Origin: an uncultured delta proteobacterium
GTDB lineage: Bacteria; Desulfobacterota; Binatia; UBA9968
Length of the DNA: 24,201 bases
Assembly: GCA_963840855.1 (NCBI GenBank)
Contig: CAWJBB010000052.1
Coordinates: 1-24,201 of the forward strand
Direction: 5' to 3'
A program made the position numbers and the translations under genes. Every line of letters begins with the position of its first letter. Position 1 is the first letter of the stretch. The notes under the pieces were generated by a model, which was not told where the DNA came from, made no database searches, and saw only the letters and a program-made list of their open reading frames with translations. This document shows positions 2,841 through 18,180 of this stretch, piece by piece.

Positions 2841-2921
2841 ATCGTTTTCTTGCTCGGCAACGACGGCGATTACATGACCGGCCGGACCTCGCGCGTAAAC
2901 GGCGTCATGGTTCTGTCATGA
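2841..2921 (+). pseudogene. C-terminal remnant of a short-chain dehydrogenase/reductase (SDR)
   Basis: Translates as IVFLLGNDGDYMTGRTSRVNGVMVLS*, matching the SDR C-terminal pattern vFLasd.a.yiTGq.i.VdGG. No upstream part is present. Confidence 0.55.
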
Positions 2922-2980
2922 ATGACAGGACGTCGATGGTAGACCCCGGTGGGGAAAACGAAGCGCGAGGAGAAATCGTC

Positions 2981-3979
2981 ATGCTAGAATCGAATGCTTG
3001 CGCGGCGCGCCCAAAGACGACAAGCGAAGCGTTTTGTCAATACTGGCATCCCGTAGCTAGATCCACGGAGGTCACGGACAAGCCGGTTAAAGTAAGACTA
3101 CTAGATCAGCCATTAGCGCTGTGGCGATCCAACGGACAAATCGCTGCGTTTTACGACCTGTGCATTCACCGTGGTACTCCACTTTCCCTCGGTTGGCTCG
3201 AAAATGGCGAACTGGTCTGTGCTTATCATGGGTGGCGTTACGGACCGAACGGTTCCTGCACGCGCATTCCGTCGCTGCCACCGGATCGCGCGATCCCCGC
3301 CAAAGCGCGGGCAAATTCATTCAAAGCGGCGGAGCGCTACGGACTGATATGGGTGTGCTTGGGTGAACCGAGGACCGGGATCCCGGAATTCCCGCCGGAG
3401 TTCAATGATCCGGCATTTCACTGGGAACCATATTCGACGGAGGGCTTTTGGAAAGCCAACGCCGCGCGCATGCTCGAGAACCTGGCCGACTATTCACACT
3501 TTCCCTGGGTTCATCCGGGCACTCTGGGCGATCCCGCTAACCCGGAATGCGAGCCTATTGCGATAGATACCCTCGACGGCGGCTTCCAGTATGACATCCC
3601 TCAACCGGTGAACCGGTTGCGGCCCGACGCTGGCGCCAGACAAACTTACAAACTCATTCTTCCATTCATCCTGTTCATTCAGCGATGGCAACCCGGCGGC
3701 AGCGAACGTCAGACCAATATTTTTCTTTGCAGTCCGATTTCCAGGAACGAAACAAGATTCTTCAGATTCATGGGGCGCAATTTTGTCGGTCATCTTTCCG
3801 ACGAAGAGCTGAATTCCAGGCATCGTCTCACCTTCGAGCAGGACCGCGCCATCGTTGAATCGCAGCGGCCCGAGGAGTTGCCGCTCGATCTCAGTGAAGA
3901 GTTGCACCTTCGTGGTCCGGATACACCAGCCATAGAGTATCGGCGGCGGCTGCGCGAGTTGGGTATCGACTGGAATTAG
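2981..3979 (+). CDS. Rieske non-heme iron oxygenase alpha subunit (VanA/NdmA-like demethylase type)
   Basis: Rieske motifs CIHRG and CAYHGW; mononuclear Fe motif ENLADYSHFPWVH; C-terminal EQDRAIVESQRP...D...YRR. GAGGAG RBS before ATG 2981 (332 aa). Confidence 0.9.
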   Translation: MLESNACAARPKTTSEAFCQYWHPVARSTEVTDKPVKVRLLDQPLALWRSNGQIAAFYDLCIHRGTPLSLGWLENGELVCAYHGWRYGPNGSCTRIPSLPPDRAIPAKARANSFKAAERYGLIWVCLGEPRTGIPEFPPEFNDPAFHWEPYSTEGFWKANAARMLENLADYSHFPWVHPGTLGDPANPECEPIAIDTLDGGFQYDIPQPVNRLRPDAGARQTYKLILPFILFIQRWQPGGSERQTNIFLCSPISRNETRFFRFMGRNFVGHLSDEELNSRHRLTFEQDRAIVESQRPEELPLDLSEELHLRGPDTPAIEYRRRLRELGIDWN

Positions 3980-4005
3980 CTTTTCAATGACGGCGCCGCT
4001 GCAGG

Positions 4006-4149
4006 TTAAGTTTTGTTTCCGTGGGACTGCACCCAAGCCCGTATTCAGGCGTTGGTTTCCTCCGGCATTTCCCAGAAAAACCCGTGTGACTGGCCTTTGA
4101 TGAGCTTGAATTCGGCTCCCGGAATGCGCTCGGCGAGAACTTGATGCGC
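4006..4149 (-). pseudogene. C-terminal remnant of an alpha/beta hydrolase with an internal stop
   Basis: AHQVLAERIPGAEFKLIKGQSHGFFWEMPEETNA*IRAWVQSHGNKT*, the typical 'laerIPgA...GH...E.Pe' hydrolase C-terminus. TGA at 4047-4045. Confidence 0.65.
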
Positions 4150-4332
4150 GCTTGGTTGCGAAGCTCAAAGAGATTCTGAAATGACGCACGCGTTCTTGGG
4201 CGGATGCTGTTTGGCAAAGGGCACATTGAATGCTGGGCGCAGCCGGTTCAAGTAGTCAAGCCGTCTGAAACAGGAGCGGAGCGATTGAACAGCTTAAACG
4301 TTTTGAATCGTCCAAGTAAGGAGGAAAGCGAA

Positions 4333-5307
4333 ATGAAGTGCAAAGTGAAAACTCTCTCCGCCATGATACTCGTTTGCGCAGTTGCGCTGTGCTCCGGGAT
4401 GACAGCGGCACAGACCTATCCTAGTAAGCCTGTGCGCCTCATCATTCCTTTTCCGCCGGGTGGGAGCAACGACATCGTCGGGCGCTTCATCGCAACTAAA
4501 TTGACCGAACGGCTGGGCAAGCAAGTCGTCGCGGACAACCGCGGCGGGGCGGGAGGAGTCATCGGCACTGAAGCCGCGGCAAAAGCGGAGCCTGATGGTC
4601 ACACCCTTCTCATCATCTCTTCCGCGTACGCGATCAATACCTCCCTGTACAAGCTGCCCTACGATCCGGTCAAAGCCTTTAACCCAATCGCCAAGGTCGG
4701 AACCGGGCCGAACGTTTTCGCCGTCCATCCGGGCGTTCCGGTCAACTCGGTCAAAGAATTCATCGCGCTCGCGAAAGAAAAGCCCGGCCAGCTGAATTTC
4801 GCGTCGGCGGGCGTCGGCAGCTTTCAGCATCTCGGCAGCGAGCTTTTCAAGTCGATGACCGGAGTAGATGTCGGCATCGTCCAGTTCAAAGGCGGCGGCC
4901 CGGCGATGATCGACGTGATCGGTGGTCATACCCATGCGGCGCTTGGCTCCCTCATTCAGTTCATGCCCCATATCAAGTCCGGCAAGGTCAAGGCGCTGGG
5001 CACCGGCGGAGCGAAGCGCAGCGCCTCCTTGCCCGATGTACCGACCATCGCCGAGGCCGGGGTCCCGGGATACGAAGCGAACAACTGGTGGGGCATTATC
5101 GCGCCCGCCGCCACCCCGCGACCCGTTATCGACCGGCTGTACAAGGAGATCTCGGCCATTCTGAGCTCGGCGGATACACAGAAGGTGTTCGGCGACCAGG
5201 GCGCGGAAGTAGACAAACTGGGCCCGGCCGAGTTCGGTCCGTACATCGTCGCCGAAACGGCTAAATGGGGAAAGGTTATCAAAGAAGCCAACATCAAAGC
5301 GGAATAG
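4333..5307 (+). CDS. tctC: Tripartite tricarboxylate transporter substrate-binding protein (Bug/TctC)
   Basis: Signal peptide, then YPSKPVRLIIPFPPGGSNDIVGR, NRGGAGGVIG, FKGGGPAMID, LPDVPTIAEAG. AGGAGG RBS before ATG 4333. Confidence 0.93.
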   Translation: MKCKVKTLSAMILVCAVALCSGMTAAQTYPSKPVRLIIPFPPGGSNDIVGRFIATKLTERLGKQVVADNRGGAGGVIGTEAAAKAEPDGHTLLIISSAYAINTSLYKLPYDPVKAFNPIAKVGTGPNVFAVHPGVPVNSVKEFIALAKEKPGQLNFASAGVGSFQHLGSELFKSMTGVDVGIVQFKGGGPAMIDVIGGHTHAALGSLIQFMPHIKSGKVKALGTGGAKRSASLPDVPTIAEAGVPGYEANNWWGIIAPAATPRPVIDRLYKEISAILSSADTQKVFGDQGAEVDKLGPAEFGPYIVAETAKWGKVIKEANIKAE

Positions 5308-5372
5308 ACGACTCGCACAACGCCGCGACCGAACGCCGGAATATCTCGCGCAAAGACGCAAAGAAGAGGAGA

Positions 5373-5445
5373 CTCATCACGAAGGTCACGAAGTTTAAGA
5401 GAGTAAATTCCGAACCCTTCGTGTCCTTCGTGCCTTCGTGGTGAG
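5373..5445. repeat. REP-like palindromic intergenic repeat (CACGAAG / CTTCGTG units)
   Basis: CTCATCACGAAGGTCACGAAG ... CTTCGTGTCCTTCGTGCCTTCGTGGTGAG forms a long imperfect hairpin, preceded by the tandem CGCAAAGACGCAAAG. Confidence 0.7.
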
Positions 5446-5470
5446 ACCGTATTGTATTTTCATTTCACCA

Positions 5471-5923
5471 ATGAATATCGCGCTGCGCAACAACAAGGAT
5501 TTCTGGGCCGGCATCATGCTGATTGTCTTAGGCGTCGCGTCGATTTTTATTGCCCGTGACTATCCGTTCGGCAGCACGATGCGGATGGGGCCCGGTTATT
5601 TTCCAAGCATGCTCGGCGGAATCCTCGTCCTGTTCGGCATCTACGTGATGATCGTCGGACTGCGCAAGGGCGAGAAGATCGCGGTTCATTGCTCGCTTCG
5701 GGCGGTCATCGTGCTGCCCCTGTCACTCATCGCCTTCGGGGTTTTGATGACACATGCCGGCTTCATACCGGCGATGGCGGTGCTCATCTTCGGGTCGGCA
5801 TCCGCGGGGCGGGAGTTCAAGTTCGTCGAGGTGTTGCTGCTTACCGTTATCTTGACCGGGCTCTCGGTCGCCATATTCATCTGGGGTCTTGCGCTGCCAT
5901 ATCCATTGATCAAAGGCTTCTGA
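5471..5923 (+). CDS. tctB: Tripartite tricarboxylate transporter small membrane subunit TctB
   Basis: KDFWAG, RMGPGYFP motif and about four hydrophobic segments; lies between tctC and tctA. Confidence 0.88.
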   Translation: MNIALRNNKDFWAGIMLIVLGVASIFIARDYPFGSTMRMGPGYFPSMLGGILVLFGIYVMIVGLRKGEKIAVHCSLRAVIVLPLSLIAFGVLMTHAGFIPAMAVLIFGSASAGREFKFVEVLLLTVILTGLSVAIFIWGLALPYPLIKGF

Positions 5924-5933
5924 CACCGTCGCC

Positions 5934-7454
5934 ATGGAACTCTTCAACAATCTGATCTTTGGGTTCAGCGTCGCGCTCTCGCTGCAAAATCTACTCTACT
6001 GTTTCGTCGGCGTGCTGGTGGGTACGTTGATCGGCGTCCTTCCCGGCATCGGGCCGTTGGCGACCATCGCGATGCTCTTGCCGCTCACTTTCAACGTGCC
6101 GCCGGTTGCGGCGATGATCATGCTTGCCGGCATTTACTATGGTGCCATGTACGGTGGCTCGACTACTTCGATCCTGGTCAACCTGCCCGGCGAGACCGCC
6201 GCCGTGGTCACGTGCCTCGACGGCTATCAGATGGCGCGGCAGGGGCGCGCCGGAGCGGCTCTTGCCATCGCGGCAATCGGCTCGTTTTTCGCCGGCACCG
6301 TCTCTACTTTGTTGATCGCGCTGTTCGCCCCGCCGCTCGGCGAGTTCGCGCTGAAGTTCAGCTCAGCGGAGTATTTCTCGCTGATGCTGATGGGTTTGGT
6401 GGCCGCGGCGGTACTCGCCCACGGCGACATGGCGAAGTCCCTCGCCATGGTTGTCGTAGGATTGTTACTCGGCATCGTTGGCGCCGACGTCAATTCGGGG
6501 ATCAAGCGTTTCGCCTTCGGATTTTACGAGCTGGCGGACGGCATCGGGGTCGTGACGATCGCCGTGGGGGTGTTCGCCGTGGGTGAAATCTTGAGCAACT
6601 TGAGCGATCCGGAAGAACGCCAGGTCTTCACCTCCAAGGTGACAAACCTTTTTCCCACAAAGGACGATCTCAAACGCTCTTTCGGCGCGATTGTCAGAGG
6701 CACCGGAGTCGGCGCGTTCTTCGGCGTGCTGCCGGGCACGACGCCGGCGATCGCCTCGTTCTCGTCGTATATGATCGAGAAGAAGCTTAGCAAAGACCCG
6801 TCGCGTTTCGGCCAGGGCGCCATCGAGGGCGTGGCGGGACCCGAGTCCGCCAACAACGCCGACGCGCAGTGCAAGTTTATTCCGATGCTCACCCTGGGGA
6901 TTCCCGCCAGCGGCACGATGGCGCTCATGCTCGGGGCGTTGATGATTTACGGCATTGCGCCCGGCCCGCAGGTGATGACCGATAAGCCCGATCTTTTCTG
7001 GGGGCTGATCGCCAGCATGTGGATCGGCAACGTGATGCTGCTCGTGCTCAACCTGCCGCTAATCGGCATGTGGGTGAGCCTGCTCAAGATGCCCTATCGT
7101 TTGCTCTTCCCCGCGATCATGGCGTTCTCCGCCATCGGCATATATAGCGTCAACAATAGTTCATTCGATATTTATCTCATGGCGATCTTCGGCATCCTCG
7201 GCATCGTCTGGAGGATATTCGATTGCAGCCCGGTGCCGATGATGCTCGGGTTCGTGCTCGGGCCGATGGTCGAAGAAAATCTGCGCCGCACAATGCAGGT
7301 CTCGCGCGGCGATCCCTCGGTGTTCTTCACCCGGCCGATCAGCCTCGGGTTTATCGTCGCCACGATTCTCATCTTGATAGTCATGGCGGCGCCGGCCGTG
7401 CGCAGGTGGTGGGGCGCCGCCGGTGCGTCGTCGCGTGAGAACGCAGCGGAATAA
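5934..7454 (+). CDS. tctA: Tripartite tricarboxylate transporter large permease TctA
   Basis: GTLIGVLPGIGP, YYGAMYGGSTTSILVNLPGE, GVAGPESANNA, PMLTLGIP motifs; 506 aa and hydrophobic. Confidence 0.95.
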   Translation: MELFNNLIFGFSVALSLQNLLYCFVGVLVGTLIGVLPGIGPLATIAMLLPLTFNVPPVAAMIMLAGIYYGAMYGGSTTSILVNLPGETAAVVTCLDGYQMARQGRAGAALAIAAIGSFFAGTVSTLLIALFAPPLGEFALKFSSAEYFSLMLMGLVAAAVLAHGDMAKSLAMVVVGLLLGIVGADVNSGIKRFAFGFYELADGIGVVTIAVGVFAVGEILSNLSDPEERQVFTSKVTNLFPTKDDLKRSFGAIVRGTGVGAFFGVLPGTTPAIASFSSYMIEKKLSKDPSRFGQGAIEGVAGPESANNADAQCKFIPMLTLGIPASGTMALMLGALMIYGIAPGPQVMTDKPDLFWGLIASMWIGNVMLLVLNLPLIGMWVSLLKMPYRLLFPAIMAFSAIGIYSVNNSSFDIYLMAIFGILGIVWRIFDCSPVPMMLGFVLGPMVEENLRRTMQVSRGDPSVFFTRPISLGFIVATILILIVMAAPAVRRWWGAAGASSRENAAE

Positions 7455-7845
7455 AGGAAACGTCTCGCGACTTGTGATCGCCAATCATGACCCTTTTGAT
7501 CGGAGATTTAGAAGCGCCTCAAGGTTAGATAGCACGCCCTCACTCACAACACATGAAAGGACTCCTGACCCCGTTTTTGTTTCCCGCACTGCGCGAAGGC
7601 GCGGCGATCGCGAGCTAGAAATTGTGGAGTTGAATTCAAAAGTGCCCGTGCGGTATGAGCGAAACAAATCAAGAAAGTCTAGAAGTAAACGGCTACCCTT
7701 GATTTCTGTCAGTCCGACATCAGGCAAGTTTTGCGAATCAAACACACTAACCAAATTACCAAAGCCTTGCGCTATTGATCTCCCAATGCCGTTTGACGGC
7801 TCGGCGGCGAAGCGATTATAGAGAAATTGAGAAGGGAGAGGAGCC

Positions 7846-9312
7846 GTGACGATGAAGAATCGCGCCGCGGAGATACACGCCAGCCTGAAACATCCCGTGA
7901 TCGACGGCGACGGCCACTGGCTGGAACCGGTGCCGGTATTTCTAGAGTACTTGTGCGAAGTGGGCGGCGCTCAATCGGTCGACCGCATTAGAGCGCTCTG
8001 GCAGCGCAATCACGCGTGGTACCGTTCCACCTGGTCGCAGCGACAGCACAATCGCACCCGGCGCAGCAACTGGTGGGGCGTCACCAGCAAGACCCTCGAC
8101 AAGGCAACGGCGCTGCTCCCGGCCCTGATGAACGAACGGCTGCCGGAGCTGGGCATAGACTTCGCGTTGATCTATCCGAGCCTCGGACTCGCGCTCAACG
8201 GCATTGCTCAGGATGACCTGCGCCGGGCCGCGGCCCGTGCCTACAACAAAATGACGGCCGACATGTTCGCGCCCTATGCCGCAAGATTTGCCCCGGTGGC
8301 GATCATTCCCGTGCATACGCCGGAGGAAGCCATTGCGGAACTCGAATACGCCGTCGGCAAACTGGGCTACCGGGCGATCATGCTGAAGGGAACCCAGGAG
8401 CGGCCCATCCCGAGCGCGGCGGAAGGCGTCGACGTGAACAAAGCCGCGTGGTACGTCGACACCCTCGCACTCGACAGCCCGCTGGATTACGATCCGTTCT
8501 GGCAGCGCTGCGTCGACCTCGGCGTCGCCGTGACCCAACACTCGGGCAGCGGCCGCTGGCCGGATCGCTGCTCCATCAGCAACTTCACCTACAACCATAT
8601 CGGCCACTTCGCCGCATCGAATCACGCCCTCGCGAAGAGCGTTTTCCTGGGAGGCCTGGTGCGGCGCTACCCGAGCCTCAATTTCGGCTTCATGGAAGGC
8701 GGTGTGAGCTGGGCCTGTCAGTTGTGCGCCGACATGATCGAGCACTGGGAGAAGCGCCGCCCTGCCGGCTTACAAAACCCGAGCGCCACCAGCATCCCCG
8801 AGATGCATCATTTTATCGCCCAGTATGGCGACGCAAGAGTGAAAGCCAATGCGGCCGCGATCATGAACAACCTGGACTTCCTTCGGCCGGAATGCAGCGT
8901 CGAGGAACTCGCGCGGCCGGAGTTTATCACCGACGATTTTGCGGCGTCGGGAATCGAATCGAAAGAGGATATTTGCGCGCTCTTCTCCGCCAACTTCTAC
9001 TTCGGCTGCGAGGCGGACGACCGAACGACCATGTGGGCCTTCGATCCCCGGATGGGCTTTCGGCTGCGGCCGGTGTTCAGCTCAGATTTCACGCATTTCG
9101 ATGTGCCTGATTTCCGCGAGGTGATACCGGAAGCGTTCGAAATGGTCGAGAGGGGCTTCGTCACCGACCAGGATTTCCGCGAGTTCACTTTCACCAATGC
9201 CGCAAGGCTGCACGCGCGCAACAATCCGGACTTCTTCAAGGATACAGTTGTCGAGCAAGCGGTGGCCGATGAGTTGGGCCTGAAGACGGCGTCGCCCGCT
9301 GCGAACGCGTAG
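7846..9312 (+). CDS. Amidohydrolase family protein (amidohydrolase_2 TIM barrel)
   Basis: HPVIDGDGHWLE, FGFMEGGVSW, FYFGCEADD, FSSDFTHFD motifs; GAGGAG RBS before GTG. Confidence 0.88.
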   Translation: MTMKNRAAEIHASLKHPVIDGDGHWLEPVPVFLEYLCEVGGAQSVDRIRALWQRNHAWYRSTWSQRQHNRTRRSNWWGVTSKTLDKATALLPALMNERLPELGIDFALIYPSLGLALNGIAQDDLRRAAARAYNKMTADMFAPYAARFAPVAIIPVHTPEEAIAELEYAVGKLGYRAIMLKGTQERPIPSAAEGVDVNKAAWYVDTLALDSPLDYDPFWQRCVDLGVAVTQHSGSGRWPDRCSISNFTYNHIGHFAASNHALAKSVFLGGLVRRYPSLNFGFMEGGVSWACQLCADMIEHWEKRRPAGLQNPSATSIPEMHHFIAQYGDARVKANAAAIMNNLDFLRPECSVEELARPEFITDDFAASGIESKEDICALFSANFYFGCEADDRTTMWAFDPRMGFRLRPVFSSDFTHFDVPDFREVIPEAFEMVERGFVTDQDFREFTFTNAARLHARNNPDFFKDTVVEQAVADELGLKTASPAANA

Positions 9313-10564: not shown

Positions 10565-11932
10565 ATGGCCACCGGACAGACAGAGCTCGTCAACATTGGG
10601 CCGAAGGAAACCCGCAAGCGCCTGCTCATGGGCATCGTCATGGTCGTCGTAGGCGTTGTCCTGGCGGTCATCTTCTCGCATGCAGGCGTAACCCGCGGCT
10701 GGTATTTTTGGCTATTTCTGCCGTTCTGGATAGGGACTTTCGCCTTGTCCCAGGCTCGCAAAAAGACCTGAGTATTTCTCGCCGCGCGCGGCGCGCGCCA
10801 CATGAACGGCACCGAAGAACCGCTCGAAGATGAAGGCGCCGCGAAACGAGTCCGATCCCAGGCGCGTTCGATCTATGTTGAGTCGGCGATTGCCGCGCTG
10901 ATTCTAACCGCGCTTAGCTTCCTTTTTGCGAGCGTACTGCCCGAGGTAGCGCGATCCTATCAGGGCTTGCGCCTGAAAGAAGCGGTCGAATTCCTGATTA
11001 AGCACGGCTACAGTCTGCTCTTCGGATGGGTGCTGGTGGAACAGATGGGGTTGCCAATTCCGGCTATTCCTCTGTTGATCGCGGCCGGCGCGCTGGCCGG
11101 CTCAGGCAAAATGGATTTGGCGCTGGCGGTGAGCTTGGCACTCGTTGCTGTTATTTTGGCTGACCTGTTCTGGTACTCTCTAGGGCGCTACCGTGGCGGC
11201 CGCATCCTGAAACTACTTTGCCGCATTTCTCTCGAACCCGATTCGTGTGTTCGGCGAACGGAGAATCTTTTTGTCCGGCATGGCGCTCATTCTTTGCTGG
11301 TTGCGAAATTTGTACCCGGCCTGAACACCGCGGCGCCGGCGCTGGCGGGAATTTTTCGCATGCCCGTGCGGCGTTTCATGATTTTCGATTCCCTGGGTGG
11401 ATTCCTCTGGGTCGCCGCCTTCGCGGGCTTGGGCTTCATATTTAGCGATCAACTCGAGCAGATTGCGAGCCATGCATTGCGTTGGGGCGGTTGGCTGGTC
11501 GCAGTCCTGGCCGGAAGTTTGGCGGCTTATATTTTGTGGAAGTACATACAGCGCCGGCGCTTCCTCCGTAGGTTGCGCATCGCGCGCATCAGCCCGAAAG
11601 AATTAATGGACAAACTGACCGCCGGGGAACAGATTTCGATCGTGGACTTGCGTCAGCCGATTGATATTGAGGCGTTTCCCCGGATGCTGCCGGGGGCGCT
11701 TCGCATAGCTATGGAGGAGATCGAAGATCGCCACAGAGAGATCCCGCGGGATCGCGACGTCGTTCTCTACTGCTCGTGACCCAACGAAGCGACCAGCGCC
11801 CGGGTGGCGCTGCTACTGAGGGCGAAAGGAATTACTAGGGTCCGCCCGCTCGAAGGCGGAATAGACGCTTGGCTGGCGAACCATTTCCCATTCGATGCCG
11901 GAGACGTCGTCAACAAACCCATTGTCCTCTGA
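10565..11932 (+). CDS. Probable selenoprotein with two UGA-Sec codons (residues 69 and 405): small membrane domain + DedA (SNARE-associated) + rhodanese, 455 aa
   Basis: ORFs 10565-10771 and 10802-11779 share a frame, bridged by TGA-VFLAARGARH. After TGA 11777-11779 the frame continues PNEATSARVALLLRAKGITRVRPLEGGIDAW..., completing the rhodanese fold up to TGA 11930-11932. DedA motifs: EQMGLPIP, LLIAAGAL, VAKFVPGL. Both TGAs are followed by hairpins. Confidence 0.85.
10772..10800 (+). promoter_or_regulatory. Candidate bacterial SECIS element 1
   Basis: GCGCGC-GGC-GCGCGC stem-loop (10784-10798), with a G-containing apical loop about 19 nt after TGA 10769-10771. Confidence 0.6.
11780..11822 (+). 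promoter_or_regulatory. Candidate bacterial SECIS element 2
   Basis: Perfect 7-bp stem CAGCGCC-(CGGGT)-GGCGCTG (11794-11812), with a G-rich loop about 22 nt after TGA 11777-11779. Confidence 0.7.
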
Positions 11933-12008
11933 GAAAAAGCTTTGGAGCGTGCCGCGGCGTCTTTATTCTTGCGAATCATCGGCAGTGGGGCCATAGTCTC
12001 GGCAAACA

Positions 12009-13181
12009 GTGAAGCAAAAACAAACAAACGTGGCGCTTCCAGTTATTCGTCGCTTTGCGAGAATGTTTTGTTCGACGCTGCTCCTACTGACAGCGGCTTC
12101 TCATACAGCGATTTCGGCCGGCTGGCAAGAAGAATGGCAGGCGACCGTCCAGGCGGCCAAACGCGAAGGCCAGGTTACCGTCTATATCAGCGGTTACGGC
12201 GCAACGCTCGATGCCGGTCACTTCCAAAAGGACTTTCCTGAGATCAAGCTGGTCACGGTCAGCGGGCAATCCGGCCAGCTGGGCCCGCGTATTTTAGCCG
12301 AGCGGAGAGCGGAAAAATATCTCGCCGACGTCTCGAGCGCTGGCGCCAATCCCCACTACCAGCTTTTTTATGGCTCCAAGATCCTGGAGCCGATTTCCGC
12401 CGCGTTGATTCTTCCCGAGGTCACCGATCCATCGAAATGGTGGGGTGGAAAACACTGGTACATCGATCCCGAGGGGCAATACATCTTTGCCTATGTGGGC
12501 AACATGACCGGGACCGGCGCCTACGCAGTGAATGCTTTGAACCCTGCCGAGTTCAAATCCTACTGGGATTTTGTCAATCCAAAGTGGAAGGGGAAAATCG
12601 TTGCGCGCGACATCAGGATCGCAGGTCCGGGCGGCGACAACATGCGCTTCTTTTACCATCATCCGGCACTCGGCCCGAAGTTCATCCACCAGCTGTTTAG
12701 GGAAATGAATTTGACTTTGACGCGGGATTTCCGCCAGGGGATCGACTGGCTGGCGCAGGGAAAGTTTCCTCTGGCGCTTTTTTTCTCCACCTCGGATGTC
12801 AAAGCGGCCGCGCGCCAGGGACTGCCCGTCGACGTGCTCGACAACAGCCCGTTCAAAGAAGGCGTGCCCCTGGGAGTCGGTTTCGGAACGCTCGGCCTTC
12901 TGAAAAACGCGCCCCATCCCAACGCCGCCAAGGTTTTTATCAACTGGTATCTCTCCCGAAGGGCGCAGGCGGCGCTGCAGAAAGACATGACCAAAATCGC
13001 CGACGCGCCGGATTCTCTCAGGATCGATATCCCGAAGGACGACGTCGCTCCCGACAACCGCAGGGTGGAAGGGGTGAATTATATGACCATGTTTCGCCCT
13101 GAATGGACGGACATGAAGCCCGTTTACGCGGTGGTCAACGAAGCCTTGGCTGAAGCCGAAAAGAAAAAGAGCGGCAAATGA
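12009..13181 (+). CDS. ABC transporter extracellular solute-binding protein (Fe3+/thiamine-like SBP family)
   Basis: Signal peptide, AAKREGQVTVY, NPKWKGKI, APHPNAAKVFINWYLS. Start is uncertain (GTG 12009 or ATG 12063). Confidence 0.85.
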   Translation: MKQKQTNVALPVIRRFARMFCSTLLLLTAASHTAISAGWQEEWQATVQAAKREGQVTVYISGYGATLDAGHFQKDFPEIKLVTVSGQSGQLGPRILAERRAEKYLADVSSAGANPHYQLFYGSKILEPISAALILPEVTDPSKWWGGKHWYIDPEGQYIFAYVGNMTGTGAYAVNALNPAEFKSYWDFVNPKWKGKIVARDIRIAGPGGDNMRFFYHHPALGPKFIHQLFREMNLTLTRDFRQGIDWLAQGKFPLALFFSTSDVKAAARQGLPVDVLDNSPFKEGVPLGVGFGTLGLLKNAPHPNAAKVFINWYLSRRAQAALQKDMTKIADAPDSLRIDIPKDDVAPDNRRVEGVNYMTMFRPEWTDMKPVYAVVNEALAEAEKKKSGK

Positions 13182-13206
13182 GCTCACCATTAACCTGGAG
13201 GTTCGC

Positions 13207-13431
13207 ATGAAACAGAACATGTGTTCGCCCGTTATGATCGCGCTGCTATGGCTATCGGACTGTAGCGCAATGAATACTGCACGCGACGGCCTGCGCACCG
13301 TCGATCATCTGATGCCTCATATCTCCACGGTTCCCGCCAACAAGGGTGAGCAGTTAAAGATCTTTGTGCGCGAAAAGGTTCTCGCGGCCGAACTCATCGT
13401 CCTGGCCAGCCAGGGCAATCTACCGGCGTGA
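13207..13431 (+). pseudogene. Truncated secreted protein, probably the N-terminus of an alpha/beta hydrolase
   Basis: GGAGG RBS, signal-like N-terminus, then TVDHLMPHISTVPANKGEQLKIFVREKV, which I recall as the N-terminal segment of a hydrolase family. It stops after 74 aa. Confidence 0.45.
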
Positions 13432-13596
13432 ACGAGCTCGCCGGATTCAGCCACGGCAGTGAGCAAGCGCACCGCGAATTCTCGATCAACGGGGCGGCCG
13501 CCGGCATTACCGAAATCGCCAAGCTCGACGCCATTAACGGAAAACCAGTTTTATCTTTAGCGACCCGGATAGGAACTGGTGGGAGTTGAACGGCTA

Positions 13597-14679
13597 ATGG
13601 AAAACAAATACGGACTGCAAACCATCGTGTTGACCGTCTTTTTTCTGATGGTGATGTGGATCGTCTTGGTCCCTATGGCATTGGCCCAGACGCCATTTTA
13701 TGAAGGAAAGAATCTTCTTCTCGTGACCGGCACTGACGCGGGCGGTGCCGGCGATCTGCGCACGCGCGCAGTGATTCCGGTCTTGAAAAAACATATCCCC
13801 GGCCACCCTGCCATCGTTGTGCAGTACATGCCCGGCGCGGGCGGACGCAAGGCGGCCAATCACATGTACAAGTCGGTTCGGCCTGATGGTTTGACTGTCG
13901 GCGCCATGATCACCGGCATGGTGCAGGGCACGATTTTCGGCGAGAAAGACGTACTTTATGATCTCGACAAGTTCATTTATCTCGGCTCCCATGCCCGCTA
14001 TGCGCCCTATGCGTTTGTTACGCGCAAAGCCGCGGGCTTCAACAGCCGGGAAACTTTGATCGCGGCCCGCGGTGTGCGCATCGGCGCCCCAGCCGTCGGT
14101 CACAGCCTCTATACCATGGCCCGGCTGTTCGCCTACATGCTGGACATGAAAGAGCCGCGTTTGGTCACCGGCTATACGCCGCGGGAGATCGACATCGCTT
14201 TGGAACGGAACGAAATCGATGCCCGGGTGAGCATCCTGGACAGCTTGCTCACGCGCAATGCTCACTGGTTGGATAAAGATCTCGTGCATGTTCACGCCAC
14301 CATCGATATCCCCAAGGGATTCAAACACCCCGATACGAGGCTCGCCAAACTTCCCGAGATCGAGAGCTTCGCTCGCTCAAACCAAGACCGCCGTCTCATC
14401 CAGCTTTTTCGCGGCGCGCGCGACACCGGTCAGCCCTTTGTCTTGCCGCCGGGCACGCCGGCGGAGCACGTTAAAATATTGCGTGAAGCCATGCGCAGAG
14501 CCTTCGCCGATCCGGAGTACATCAAAGCCTACGAGAAACTCACTTCGGAGCCCGCCATGCCGCTAACCTGGGAGGAGTTTGAAACACAGCTCCGCGAGTT
14601 GCCGCGGGAAGCCGAGATCATCGATCTCTTCAAGCGGCTTTCTGGTCCGGCACCGCTGCCGGCTCGGCCGTCCCGGTAA
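13597..14679 (+). CDS. Bug/TctC-like tripartite tricarboxylate transporter substrate-binding protein
   Basis: Signal peptide-AQTPFYEGK, YMPGAGGRKAANHMY, PDGLT, LERNEIDAR, LPPGTPAEHVKILREA. Confidence 0.85.
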   Translation: MENKYGLQTIVLTVFFLMVMWIVLVPMALAQTPFYEGKNLLLVTGTDAGGAGDLRTRAVIPVLKKHIPGHPAIVVQYMPGAGGRKAANHMYKSVRPDGLTVGAMITGMVQGTIFGEKDVLYDLDKFIYLGSHARYAPYAFVTRKAAGFNSRETLIAARGVRIGAPAVGHSLYTMARLFAYMLDMKEPRLVTGYTPREIDIALERNEIDARVSILDSLLTRNAHWLDKDLVHVHATIDIPKGFKHPDTRLAKLPEIESFARSNQDRRLIQLFRGARDTGQPFVLPPGTPAEHVKILREAMRRAFADPEYIKAYEKLTSEPAMPLTWEEFETQLRELPREAEIIDLFKRLSGPAPLPARPSR

Positions 14680-16818: not shown

Positions 16819-17682
16819 CTAACGCTTGCGCTTTCGCTGCCGGCGAATGAAATCAAGAACGATATTGTTGAAGAGCTTTGGATGCTCCCAATAAATCGAA
16901 TGGCCGCATTCGGCGACGGTAACGAGTTCGCTCCGGCGGATGCACTTCGCCACCATCCGCATGATCGAAGGCGGCGTTGAAGAATCCGCATCGCCGGTAA
17001 CCAGCAGCGTTGGGACTTTGATCTTGGTCAGGGTTTGCGCCGTAATAAGGAAGTTGTTCGCTTGGTGGCGGCCCTGGCGCTTGGTGGCGTGGTCGGCCAG
17101 CTTGTCCCAGGCTTTAAGGCCTCTCGGGTTGGCCGCAATATACGAGCAACTGAATTCCCGATACCAGCGCGGCATCTGGTTCCATTGTTTAGGCCGGATC
17201 GACTGGGCGCTTTTCCAAATATTACCCTTGCGGATACCGGCATAGTTACTGGTGATCGCCAAGCTTAGAATCCTTTTGGGATAGGAAAGCGCAAAATCCG
17301 CAGCAATGCTACCGCCAGCGGCGGTGCTGACGATATGGGCCTTTTCGATGGCCAACGCGTCGAGCAGGCCGTTGAGGTCATCGGCGGCCGAGTGCTTGTC
17401 GCCTTTGCGCAAGTTGTCGGACTTGTAGTAGCCGCGCCGGGCATAACTGATCACCCGATAGCCGGCCTTGGCAAAGACCGGTTGCTGGTAAGCCCAAACC
17501 TTGGGATCACCGGTCGCGGCCGGATGTAGAAAGACCACAGCCTCGCCCTCGCCGCCGGTGTCGGCGTAGAAAATTTTCCTGCCCGGCAGCCTGGCCAGGG
17601 CACGTTTGGCCGGCACCTGCTTGGGCAGGGGTATGGGATTCATTGGATTGGCGGCATTATTGCGGACAAAGCGTTCGCTCAT
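16819..17682 (-). CDS. Alpha/beta hydrolase fold protein with a non-canonical nucleophile elbow
   Basis: VVFLHPAATG, GYRVISYARRGY, HIVSTAAGG, KVPTLLVTGDAD, CGHSIYWEHP. Start ATG 17682 with a GGAG RBS (287 aa). Confidence 0.85.
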   Translation of the reverse strand: MSERFVRNNAANPMNPIPLPKQVPAKRALARLPGRKIFYADTGGEGEAVVFLHPAATGDPKVWAYQQPVFAKAGYRVISYARRGYYKSDNLRKGDKHSAADDLNGLLDALAIEKAHIVSTAAGGSIAADFALSYPKRILSLAITSNYAGIRKGNIWKSAQSIRPKQWNQMPRWYREFSCSYIAANPRGLKAWDKLADHATKRQGRHQANNFLITAQTLTKIKVPTLLVTGDADSSTPPSIMRMVAKCIRRSELVTVAECGHSIYWEHPKLFNNIVLDFIRRQRKRKR

Positions 17683-17854
17683 CGGATACTCCCGAGTTTC
17701 ATTGCGAGATTCATGTTCTGTGGTAGGGGTGCGGGCGGCGACCAGCCGATTCGGCAACTATGGCGATACCGCGTTTCGAGTCCGGAATCGACTTGGTTTA
17801 CAGAGCCATCAACTACACTTGCGGTTGCGTAACATAGCGCCAAAATCACATTAT

Positions 17855-17942
17855 GTATAGGAAATTTAAACCACCTTTTTTTCTGGCCCGAGCAATATCG
17901 CCGGACCGGGGAGTTGTCAATTTTCTTTCTGTTTGATGAAAA
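17855..17942 (-). promoter_or_regulatory. Duplicated promoter module, copy 2 (TTGACA-17-TATTGC)
   Basis: Similar to 16361-16447. -35 at 17920-17915 and -10-like at 17897-17892, pointing at the hydrolase gene. Confidence 0.6.
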
Positions 17943-18180
17943 TCTGCAGCGATGTCAAAAGCCGCAGGAGAAGACGGCGGTAGGGTGGCAGCGGGTATCT
18001 TCCTCTAGTGGCCGGATGTTGTCAATTCGAAGTCATGGGTTTGTGACAGCACCCGACATCGAGGTGATGTCGCATCGGGTTCTCCTGATTTTCTATGGCC
18101 CGCTGTTTCGTTGGTGAGCAGGCTCCAATACAAAGTGGGAAACGATTCAGCATGAAGCGGAATGCAAGGACCTTGACCGC

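Follow-up and report, generated by a model that had tools for sequence, protein, structure and literature searches.

Here we describe a gene that very probably encodes a single 455-residue chain in which two in-frame UGA codons are both read as selenocysteine (Sec). The gene lies in a 24,201-nt stretch of DNA from an uncultured delta proteobacterium (contig CAWJBB010000052.1; the whole stretch is henceforth referred to as ‘the window’). The predicted protein joins an N-terminal membrane module, a DedA/VTT transporter domain and a C-terminal rhodanese domain, with one Sec in the first of these modules and one in the last. This architecture had been proposed in an initial annotation of the window, which was made from the letters without database searches. 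Its core is upheld by the correspondence of both Sec positions to cysteines in homologs, by the retention of both TGA codons in relatives, by a hairpin downstream of each TGA and by the presence of selA, selB and selD in the genome. Throughout, coordinates are those of the window and residue numbers are those of the 455-residue read-through protein.

Results

One reading frame with two internal UGA codons

The gene (10565..11932, forward strand, as are all features of it given below) runs in one frame from an ATG at 10565 to a TGA at 11930–11932, and the only stop codons within it are the TGAs at 10769–10771 and 11777–11779. A 68-aa open reading frame (ORF; 10565–10771), a 325-aa ORF (10802–11779) and a 50-codon tail all share this frame, and the sequences around the two internal TGAs read ...QARKKT-U-VFLAARG... 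and ...VVLYCS-U-PNEATSARVA...; the positions and motifs given in the initial annotation were reproduced exactly. Judged by frame and conservation, the coding sequence comprises 455 residues, two internal UGA codons that would specify Sec and a terminal UGA that serves as the stop. Residues 1–135 (10565..10969) constitute the predicted three-helix membrane module, which belongs to a family with the signature NIG...RKR...QAxxKT-U-VxLAARG. Within it, UGA 1 (10769..10771; henceforth ‘site 1’) would encode Sec69, between helix 2 and a short helix, at the position of the invariant Cys of a T-C-V motif. The DedA/VTT domain (PF09335, residues 165–290, 11057..11434; 56.4 bits against a Pfam cut-off of 33.9) contains the invariant cysteines C219 and C228 (LCRISLEPDSC). 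The rhodanese domain (PF00581, residues 343–438, 11591..11878; 45.9 bits against a cut-off of 22.2) has the active-site motif LYC-S-U-PNEATS, in which UGA 2 (11777..11779; ‘site 2’) would encode Sec405, at the invariant second Cys of LYCxCPNE and the position of the rhodanese catalytic Cys. Conservation ends at the third UGA (11930..11932), the true stop, where the homolog L025 has TAA/TAG.

We compared the window with five homologs, without gaps, on either side of each TGA. Past the first TGA, 7–8 of 10 residues are kept over codons 70–79 and 37–44 of 56 over codons 80–135. In the tail past the second TGA (codons 406–455) 38–41 of 50 residues are kept, and the differences concentrate at third positions (for example 6, 3 and 14 at codon positions 1, 2 and 3). 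Past the third TGA, identity is 2–6 of 40 and the differences are even over the codon positions. The coding signal thus continues past both internal TGAs, as had been supposed from the sense of the translation, and stops at the third.

The two TGA codons are retained in relatives and in independent assemblies

A six-frame read-through search, in which stops were counted, was carried out on 61 related genomes including the window’s own. Nine of these genomes contain a match to residues 1–455 with two TGAs at 77–100% identity (one is the window’s own genome, one also has a TAG and one, G015, is unpublished), and the relatives other than the window’s own genome that carry both TGAs are 77–98% identical. 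The fused gene lies in two frames in one further genome; four genomes have only the DedA-rhodanese part, with a TGA at site 2, and five have the N-terminal module as a stand-alone gene (117–130 aa, 41–48% identical) whose TGA occupies the corresponding K/R-T-U-V position. When named genome contigs were scanned, 26 loci were obtained, mostly from metagenome-assembled genomes of Candidatus Binatia or ‘delta proteobacterium’. At 12 of them both sites are in frame and both are TGA, four are fused copies with a site-1 TGA that are frameshifted, interrupted or cut before site 2, and one ends before site 1. The remaining loci are stand-alone modules, four with TGA and five with TGT/TGC (labelled as Polyangiaceae, Melghirimyces thermohalophilus, Gemmatimonadaceae and two unnamed bacteria). 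No other stop takes the place of the internal TGAs in any locus read. Since both TGAs are kept in many independent assemblies, assembly error is excluded as their source, and the recurrence of the same TGAs, frame and hairpins in relatives and in independent assemblies is more than chance would give.

The site-2 TGA also occurs outside the fused gene. In a phylum sample of 301 genomes, DedA-rhodanese proteins were found in 18 at E<=1e-30, and at the 17 readable loci, all of which are without the N-terminal module, site 2 reads TGA at 12 and TGT/TGC at the other 5. Sec-type DedA-rhodanese proteins are therefore not confined to this lineage, to which the two-Sec fusion itself seems, by its sequence distribution within the genomes searched, to be confined.

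Both UGA codons stand at positions of invariant cysteines

For the N-terminal module we built a profile from 12 modules and searched it against 1.84 billion representative proteins. Matches numbered 1515 at E<=1e-3 and 436 at E<=1e-10, and the majority were ~120 aa long and covered site 1. In 29 of 29 Cys-type homologs of ~120 aa the Sec69 column is an invariant Cys (Q-A-x-x-x-T-C-V-x-L-A). Stand-alone Sec-type genes run in frame past their TGA through VxLAARGxRNxDxGEE and a third hydrophobic helix to a stop, and M80 is common to all fused forms. Residues 1–140 matched nothing in Pfam or NCBIfam, a Pfam/NCBIfam scan of members of the module family gave no family above noise, and the ESM Atlas clusters nearest to the module are annotated ‘hypothetical protein’, with no Pfam family.

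A search with residues 330–455 returned 3375 proteins at E<=0.001, and among the matches listed are DedA-rhodanese proteins, mostly ~315 aa, from many phyla and 54–65% identical in this region. When 13 Cys-type DedA-rhodanese proteins were aligned, all 13 had the invariant Cys of LYCxCPNE in the U405 column, in agreement with the YCxCPNE motif that had been ascribed to them. A wider alignment of 71 sequences, down to 35% identity, shows no variation at positions C219, C228, C403 or C405. The check proposed with the initial annotation, namely that both U should fall on conserved Cys and that TGA or TGY should be kept in relatives, thus gave 29/29 at site 1 and 13/13 at site 2, and both TGAs in genomes down to 77% identity and at 12 named-contig loci. 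Aligned by HMMER with the PDB rhodaneses 6mxv and 3iwh, U405 falls on the active-site Cys without a gap, whereas with 3tp9 and 5ve3 it is C403, not U405, that falls there, with a 2-residue gap. The AlphaFold2 model around U405 has a strand (398–402), a coil (403–405) and a helix (406–420), and strand-coil-helix is the usual setting of a rhodanese nucleophile.

The best 120 database matches to the whole protein are all 321–335 aa long and end at the second TGA. They begin at or just past the first, some under the name ‘VTT domain-containing protein [Candidatus Binatia bacterium]’, and all are without the N-terminal module. The splitting and truncation of the gene by standard gene callers, predicted at the outset, is thus what the databases contain. 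A separate database protein, P0199 (371 aa), has a start that resembles the Binatia gene just past its first TGA and is identical, from mid-DedA onward, to the Nitrospirae-type Cys protein P0192; a chimeric contig is its probable origin. At least two relatives carry another YCxUPxE site of rhodanese type (L065:7595-7639; G026:C315:9864-10109, L041), which has a TGA together with the same hairpin and is found a few kb further downstream than the fused gene. This suggests a paralogous Sec rhodanese near the fused gene in those relatives.

A SECIS-like hairpin follows each internal UGA

The first hairpin resembling a bacterial selenocysteine insertion sequence (SECIS) lies at 10784..10798 (GCGCGC / loop GGC / GCGCGC) and begins 12 nt past UGA 1. 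The second lies at 11794..11812 (CAGCGCC / loop CGGGU / GGCGCUG) and begins 14 nt past UGA 2. The terminal UGA at 11930–11932 is without a hairpin of this kind. RNAalifold was run on 12 sequences per site, with columns counted from the U of the UGA. It gave GCGCGC / GGN / GCGCGC at columns 16–30 for site 1 and AGCGCC / CGGGY / GGCGCU at columns 19–35 for site 2 (window 11795–11811), where a further C-G pair extends the stem to 11794–11812. The distance from UGA to stem is 12–14 nt and that from UGA to loop 18–21 nt, and the loops contain G; these distances and G-containing loops fit the rules for bacterial SECIS elements. An Rfam scan of the window gave no match.

At both sites the hairpin distinguishes Sec-type from Cys-type genes. 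The GC hairpin of site 1 is present in 14 of 14 distinct Sec-type sequences as against 1 of 5 Cys-type, and one of the latter (L076) encodes the LAARG residues by other codons and has no hairpin. For site 2, 19 of 21 distinct Sec-type sequences have the hairpin in matching columns, as against 0 of 4 distinct Cys-type sequences, the two Sec-type exceptions being L088, with a shifted GGCC/GGCC stem, and L096, which would need a G-U pair. In the group L098–L101 (and in L103) SASLAR stands in place of SARAAL, yet the stem is still kept, with a GUC loop. In two sequences the C-G of pair 21–33 at site 2 is replaced by U-A; of the 144 cells, 95.8% are paired, and the covariation score is reached by 3 of 500 shuffles. 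The proposal that G-loop hairpins stand at bacterial-SECIS distance was therefore sound as to their conservation at both TGAs and their absence from most Cys-type genes, while covariation gave it weak support. Because formal covariation is weak, we take the contrast between Sec-type and Cys-type genes as the stronger argument.

Selenocysteine machinery in the genome and its relatives

The genome assembly to which the window belongs (G000) has 7.1 Mb in 93 contigs and is 94% complete with 8% contamination. Its contig C1 contains selA (616 bits, above cut-off) and selD (G000:C1:37592-38518; 383 bits, above cut-off), and selD adjoins selB and selA in one cluster. The selD gene itself has an in-frame TGA in ...KAAG-U-AAKL..., which is the known Sec site of SelD. 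Of five relatives, four have a tRNA-Sec with anticodon UCA (73–77 bits), among them a genome from the same genus that is 99% complete, and selB is one open frame in four of the five. A check of the genome for selA, selB, selC and selD, as had been proposed, thus found selA, selB and selD to be present, but with selB in two frames and selC not found.

Points against a two-Sec chain

Several results weigh against the proposed protein or its proposed function. In the window’s genome selB (G000:C1:38613-40500) is divided between two frames (208 + 193 bits) with a break near codon 176 (locus L021, about 11930–12030), and a genuine frameshift there would abolish Sec insertion in the strain and matter for all of its selenoproteins. 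For tRNA-Sec, the best match to RF01852 in the same genome scores 43 bits, below the 47-bit cut-off; ARAGORN reported 39 tRNAs, none of them SeC; none was found near the sel genes; and blastn with the tRNA-Sec sequences of relatives gave no match. We tentatively read both the missing tRNA-Sec and the split selB as assembly defects, the latter probably an assembly indel. As to the hairpins, covariation is thin, with one double-change pair at site 2 (in 2 of 144 cells; one such pair also arises in 71 of 500 shuffles) and one pair with double changes at site 1, and most of the hairpin bases are also constrained by conserved amino acids. In an mRNA with two such UGAs the inefficiency of Sec insertion would be compounded, and truncated products may dominate.

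The remaining points concern the N-terminal module. In the full-length AlphaFold2 model (pLDDT 73.9, pTM 0.61) the DedA and rhodanese parts are confident, but the module has a pLDDT of 32–63 and no confident placement, so that the model is uninformative on the packing of the module and on the proximity of U69 to U405. Of the 300 other genomes in the phylum sample none yielded the module, although DedA-rhodanese occurs in 17 of them. An obligatory partnership between the two is thus unsupported, and this counts against the idea of a relay. No conserved or related gene neighbourhood was found, either for the fused gene or for the stand-alone modules.

Alternative explanations

It is unlikely, in our judgement, that only the rhodanese UGA at 11777 specifies Sec and that UGA 1 is a real stop, so that the locus would produce a 68-aa two-helix peptide and a DedA-rhodanese protein starting from ATG 10802 (M80). 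That ATG exists and is the one used by gene callers, and the corresponding M80 is retained in all fused forms; DedA-rhodanese proteins also work without the N-terminal module in other lineages, and hairpin 1, which is made of codons for the conserved AARGAR, could be a by-product of coding. The last point is countered by L076, which codes for LAARG and yet has no hairpin. Moreover, the Cys-type family of ~120 aa covers the site with an invariant Cys (29/29) and has a third helix beyond it, and the stand-alone Sec-type genes stay in frame past the TGA to a proper stop. Residues 70–135 are conserved (7–8/10 and 37–44/56), and the site-1 codon is TGA or TGY, never TAA/TAG, in all loci read. We accordingly prefer to read Sec at both sites.

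We consider it very improbable that both TGAs are plain stops in a decayed or split gene, leaving a small ORF, a truncated DedA protein with a crippled rhodanese and a dead tail. This would agree with the public records of a 321–335-aa ‘VTT domain-containing protein’, and with a genome assembly in which tRNA-Sec was not found and selB is frameshifted. However, both TGAs recur down to 77% identity and in independent assemblies, conservation past each internal TGA is biased by third positions and vanishes past the third, homologs have an invariant Cys at both sites, the hairpins are specific to the TGA-type genes, and selD of the same genome itself requires Sec. A reassignment of UGA in this organism (for example to Trp or Gly), which would make the residues other than Sec, we hold to be least credible of all: the frame would be open under any code that reads TGA, and nothing specific speaks for it, whereas 5 of the 16 long ORFs in the window, and this gene too, end in TGA as an ordinary stop. 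In addition, both sites are occupied in the homologs by Cys and not by Trp or Gly, TGG is used ten times in the gene and the genome has a dedicated Sec pathway. A single 455-residue chain with Sec at positions 69 and 405 is the reading that we carry forward.

Predicted structure of the N-terminal module and its faint resemblance to YgaP

Modelled by itself from a 32-sequence alignment, the module gave a pLDDT of 95.5 and a pTM of 0.85, with a helix at residues 13–40, a second at 44–66, a coil at 67–69 (K-T-U), a short helix at 70–75, a small beta hairpin and a long helix at 90–132. Sec69 is flanked by RKK and other R/K residues, which by the positive-inside rule would place it, in the modelled fold, probably on the cytoplasmic face. 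The sequence profile of the module had 0 matches in the PDB at E<=10, and Foldseek with the pLDDT-95 model found no analogue among solved structures (best E 2.8, TM <=0.38).

In E. coli YgaP a PF11127 domain is fused to a rhodanese domain. The YgaP-like TM domain (PF11127/DUF2892) resembles the module described here in that each is a small hairpin of membrane helices, starts with N-x-G...R and has one conserved Cys after helix 2, and 5 of 32 members of the module family have weak PF11127 matches (best E 0.0012). Unlike the YgaP-like domain, the module in the window has a third helix. We rejected membership of this family, since the module has no PF11127 match at E<=10, a PF11127 scan of the genome missed it, and hhalign against six local DUF2892 domains aligned 21 columns with a probability of 6.5%; a faint resemblance is all that we retain. 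Elsewhere in the same order, one genome encodes a true YgaP-like TM domain (L050, G037:C1:142086-142226; PF11127, 34 bits), and the matched stretch includes a TGA in frame.

Gene neighbourhoods

The genes flanking the fused gene (2918–9312 and 12009–14679) comprise TctC/TctA components of a tripartite tricarboxylate transporter (TctABC), amidohydrolases, an ABM monooxygenase and solute-binding proteins, and no sulfur- or selenium-related gene was seen among these window neighbours. With spacers of ~240 nt upstream and ~76 nt downstream, the gene looks monocistronic. The neighbours of nine stand-alone modules are heterogeneous. Two of five Cys-type stand-alone modules lie directly downstream of an O-antigen-ligase-like (Wzy_C) membrane protein (L077:2240-3880; L078:2363-3973), a sample too small to weigh; DedA proteins are linked to undecaprenyl-phosphate recycling. 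In one relative (G035:C2) a tRNA-Sec gene (17584-17674, forward strand, 76.7 bits) lies 1 nt from the end of a stand-alone Sec-type module gene (17676-18044, reverse strand), an arrangement seen at one of the four tRNA-Sec loci inspected (G035 only; loci L042, L079).

Discussion

In the mechanism that we propose, one gene would give rise to a 455-residue inner-membrane selenoprotein. The UGAs at 10769 and 11777 would be read as Sec, each directed by an in-gene GC-rich hairpin 12–14 nt downstream that would act as a bacterial SECIS read by SelB, and translation would end at the third UGA. The product would consist of a three-helix membrane module with a single conserved Cys/Sec, U69, where helix 2 ends, a transporter domain of the DedA/VTT family containing the two invariant cysteines C219 and C228, and a C-terminal rhodanese on the cytoplasmic side, in which Sec U405 would take the part of the catalytic Cys, with the invariant C403 two positions ahead of it (C-x-U). 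In rhodaneses the active-site Cys is the carrier of sulfane sulfur or selenium. The Sec of this rhodanese may take up or pass on sulfane sulfur or selenium, or form a Se-S bond with C403, while the loop cysteines of the DedA domain and U69 may provide further relay or resolving sites, and this chalcogen chemistry would be tied to the transport carried out by the DedA domain, whatever its cargo. The invariance of all five Cys/Sec positions in the protein (U69, C219, C228, C403 and U405) suggests that thiol/selenol exchange runs along them as a chain, on the cytoplasmic side of a transporter of the DedA type. Taken alone, a thiol/selenol relay function is a tentative proposal that we hold to be less likely than not. 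The fuller proposal, that the T-U-V module represents an unrecognised redox-active membrane selenoprotein family that it was joined in this Binatia lineage to a Sec-type DedA-rhodanese, and that five centres relay sulfane sulfur or selenium between the cytoplasm and the DedA pathway, is slightly more doubtful still.

The nearest known relatives are the Cys-type DedA/VTT-rhodanese fusions (PF09335 + PF00581), which appear in source records as ‘DedA family protein/thiosulfate sulfurtransferase GlpE’ or ‘VTT domain-containing protein’. They have the same domain order, are 50–63% identical over residues 136–455 and share the invariant C219, C228 and LYCxCPNE. In the protein described here, unlike these fusions, the second Cys of CxC would be Sec, and a 135-residue Sec-containing membrane module precedes the DedA domain. 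The UptA equivalog model NF052604 gives 65 bits against a cut-off of 250, by which the protein is classed as a DedA relative and not as an UptA equivalog. The best NCBIfam match is NF041203, ‘rhodanese-related (seleno)protein, rhodanese_LYCAU’ (residues 339–444, E 8.6e-22), with which the C-x-U (LYC-x-U) is held in common. The match scores 77.2 bits, below the cut-off of 115 for this 126-position model, and here, unlike in NF041203, the rhodanese is the last domain of a membrane protein that would have another Sec elsewhere in its chain. A precedent for multi-Sec rhodanese fusions is TsoB (NF045694), described as rhodanese/DsbD fusion-like and, to go by its name and table entry (PMC13188914), also a fusion with a rhodanese-like domain and two Sec. 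It differs in that both Sec lie in one motif (UxxxxU) and in that the partner is DsbD-like, not DedA, and NF045694 is not among the 11 NCBIfam families that match the protein at E<=0.1.

Table 1 of a 2026 review comprises 119 prokaryotic selenoprotein families with five rhodanese forms, form 3 of which is NF041203 (CxU); the table has no DedA entry and nothing that matches the N-terminal module (PMC13188914). The words DedA, SNARE, VTT, YgaP and DUF2892 are absent from the text of the review. More widely, we found no description of a DedA selenoprotein or of the N-terminal module in the accessible portions of the literature, although supplementary lists of selenoproteins could hold them. Sec in a DedA fusion, the ‘T-C/U-V’ three-helix family and the union of both in one two-Sec chain therefore seem to be undescribed. 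The claim of novelty made in the initial annotation accordingly stands for the three-domain, two-Sec architecture, which appears to be undescribed, but is narrowed for the parts, in that a C-x-U Sec rhodanese is already listed (NF041203) and Sec-type DedA-rhodanese proteins occur elsewhere in the phylum. The rhodanese Sec is a known type in a new context, whereas the N-terminal module looks, from sequence, like a new selenoprotein family. We regard the finding as a solid addition to the selenoproteome and not as a new principle.

Since the public records seen for this gene and its close relatives end at the second UGA, the active site of the rhodanese is missing from the databases, and Sec-type DedA-rhodanese genes from other families of the phylum are truncated likewise. 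If real, the protein adds one new selenoprotein family and one new fusion class, and it would be one of few selenoproteins with Sec in two separate modules. The DedA-rhodanese fusion is mentioned in PMC10127716, which calls its link to undecaprenyl-phosphate flipping ‘unclear’ and leaves the purpose of such fusions an open question. The invariant Cys/Sec positions and the catalytic Sec described here point to chalcogen redox chemistry in DedA-rhodanese function, and they give residues to mutate. DedA was reportedly linked to selenite in the work of Ledgham et al. of 2005, to go by its title in the reference list of PMC10127716. Should the proposed relay be correct, it could account for this old genetic link, and one subfamily of DedA proteins would have a role in chalcogen trafficking distinct from undecaprenyl-phosphate flipping.

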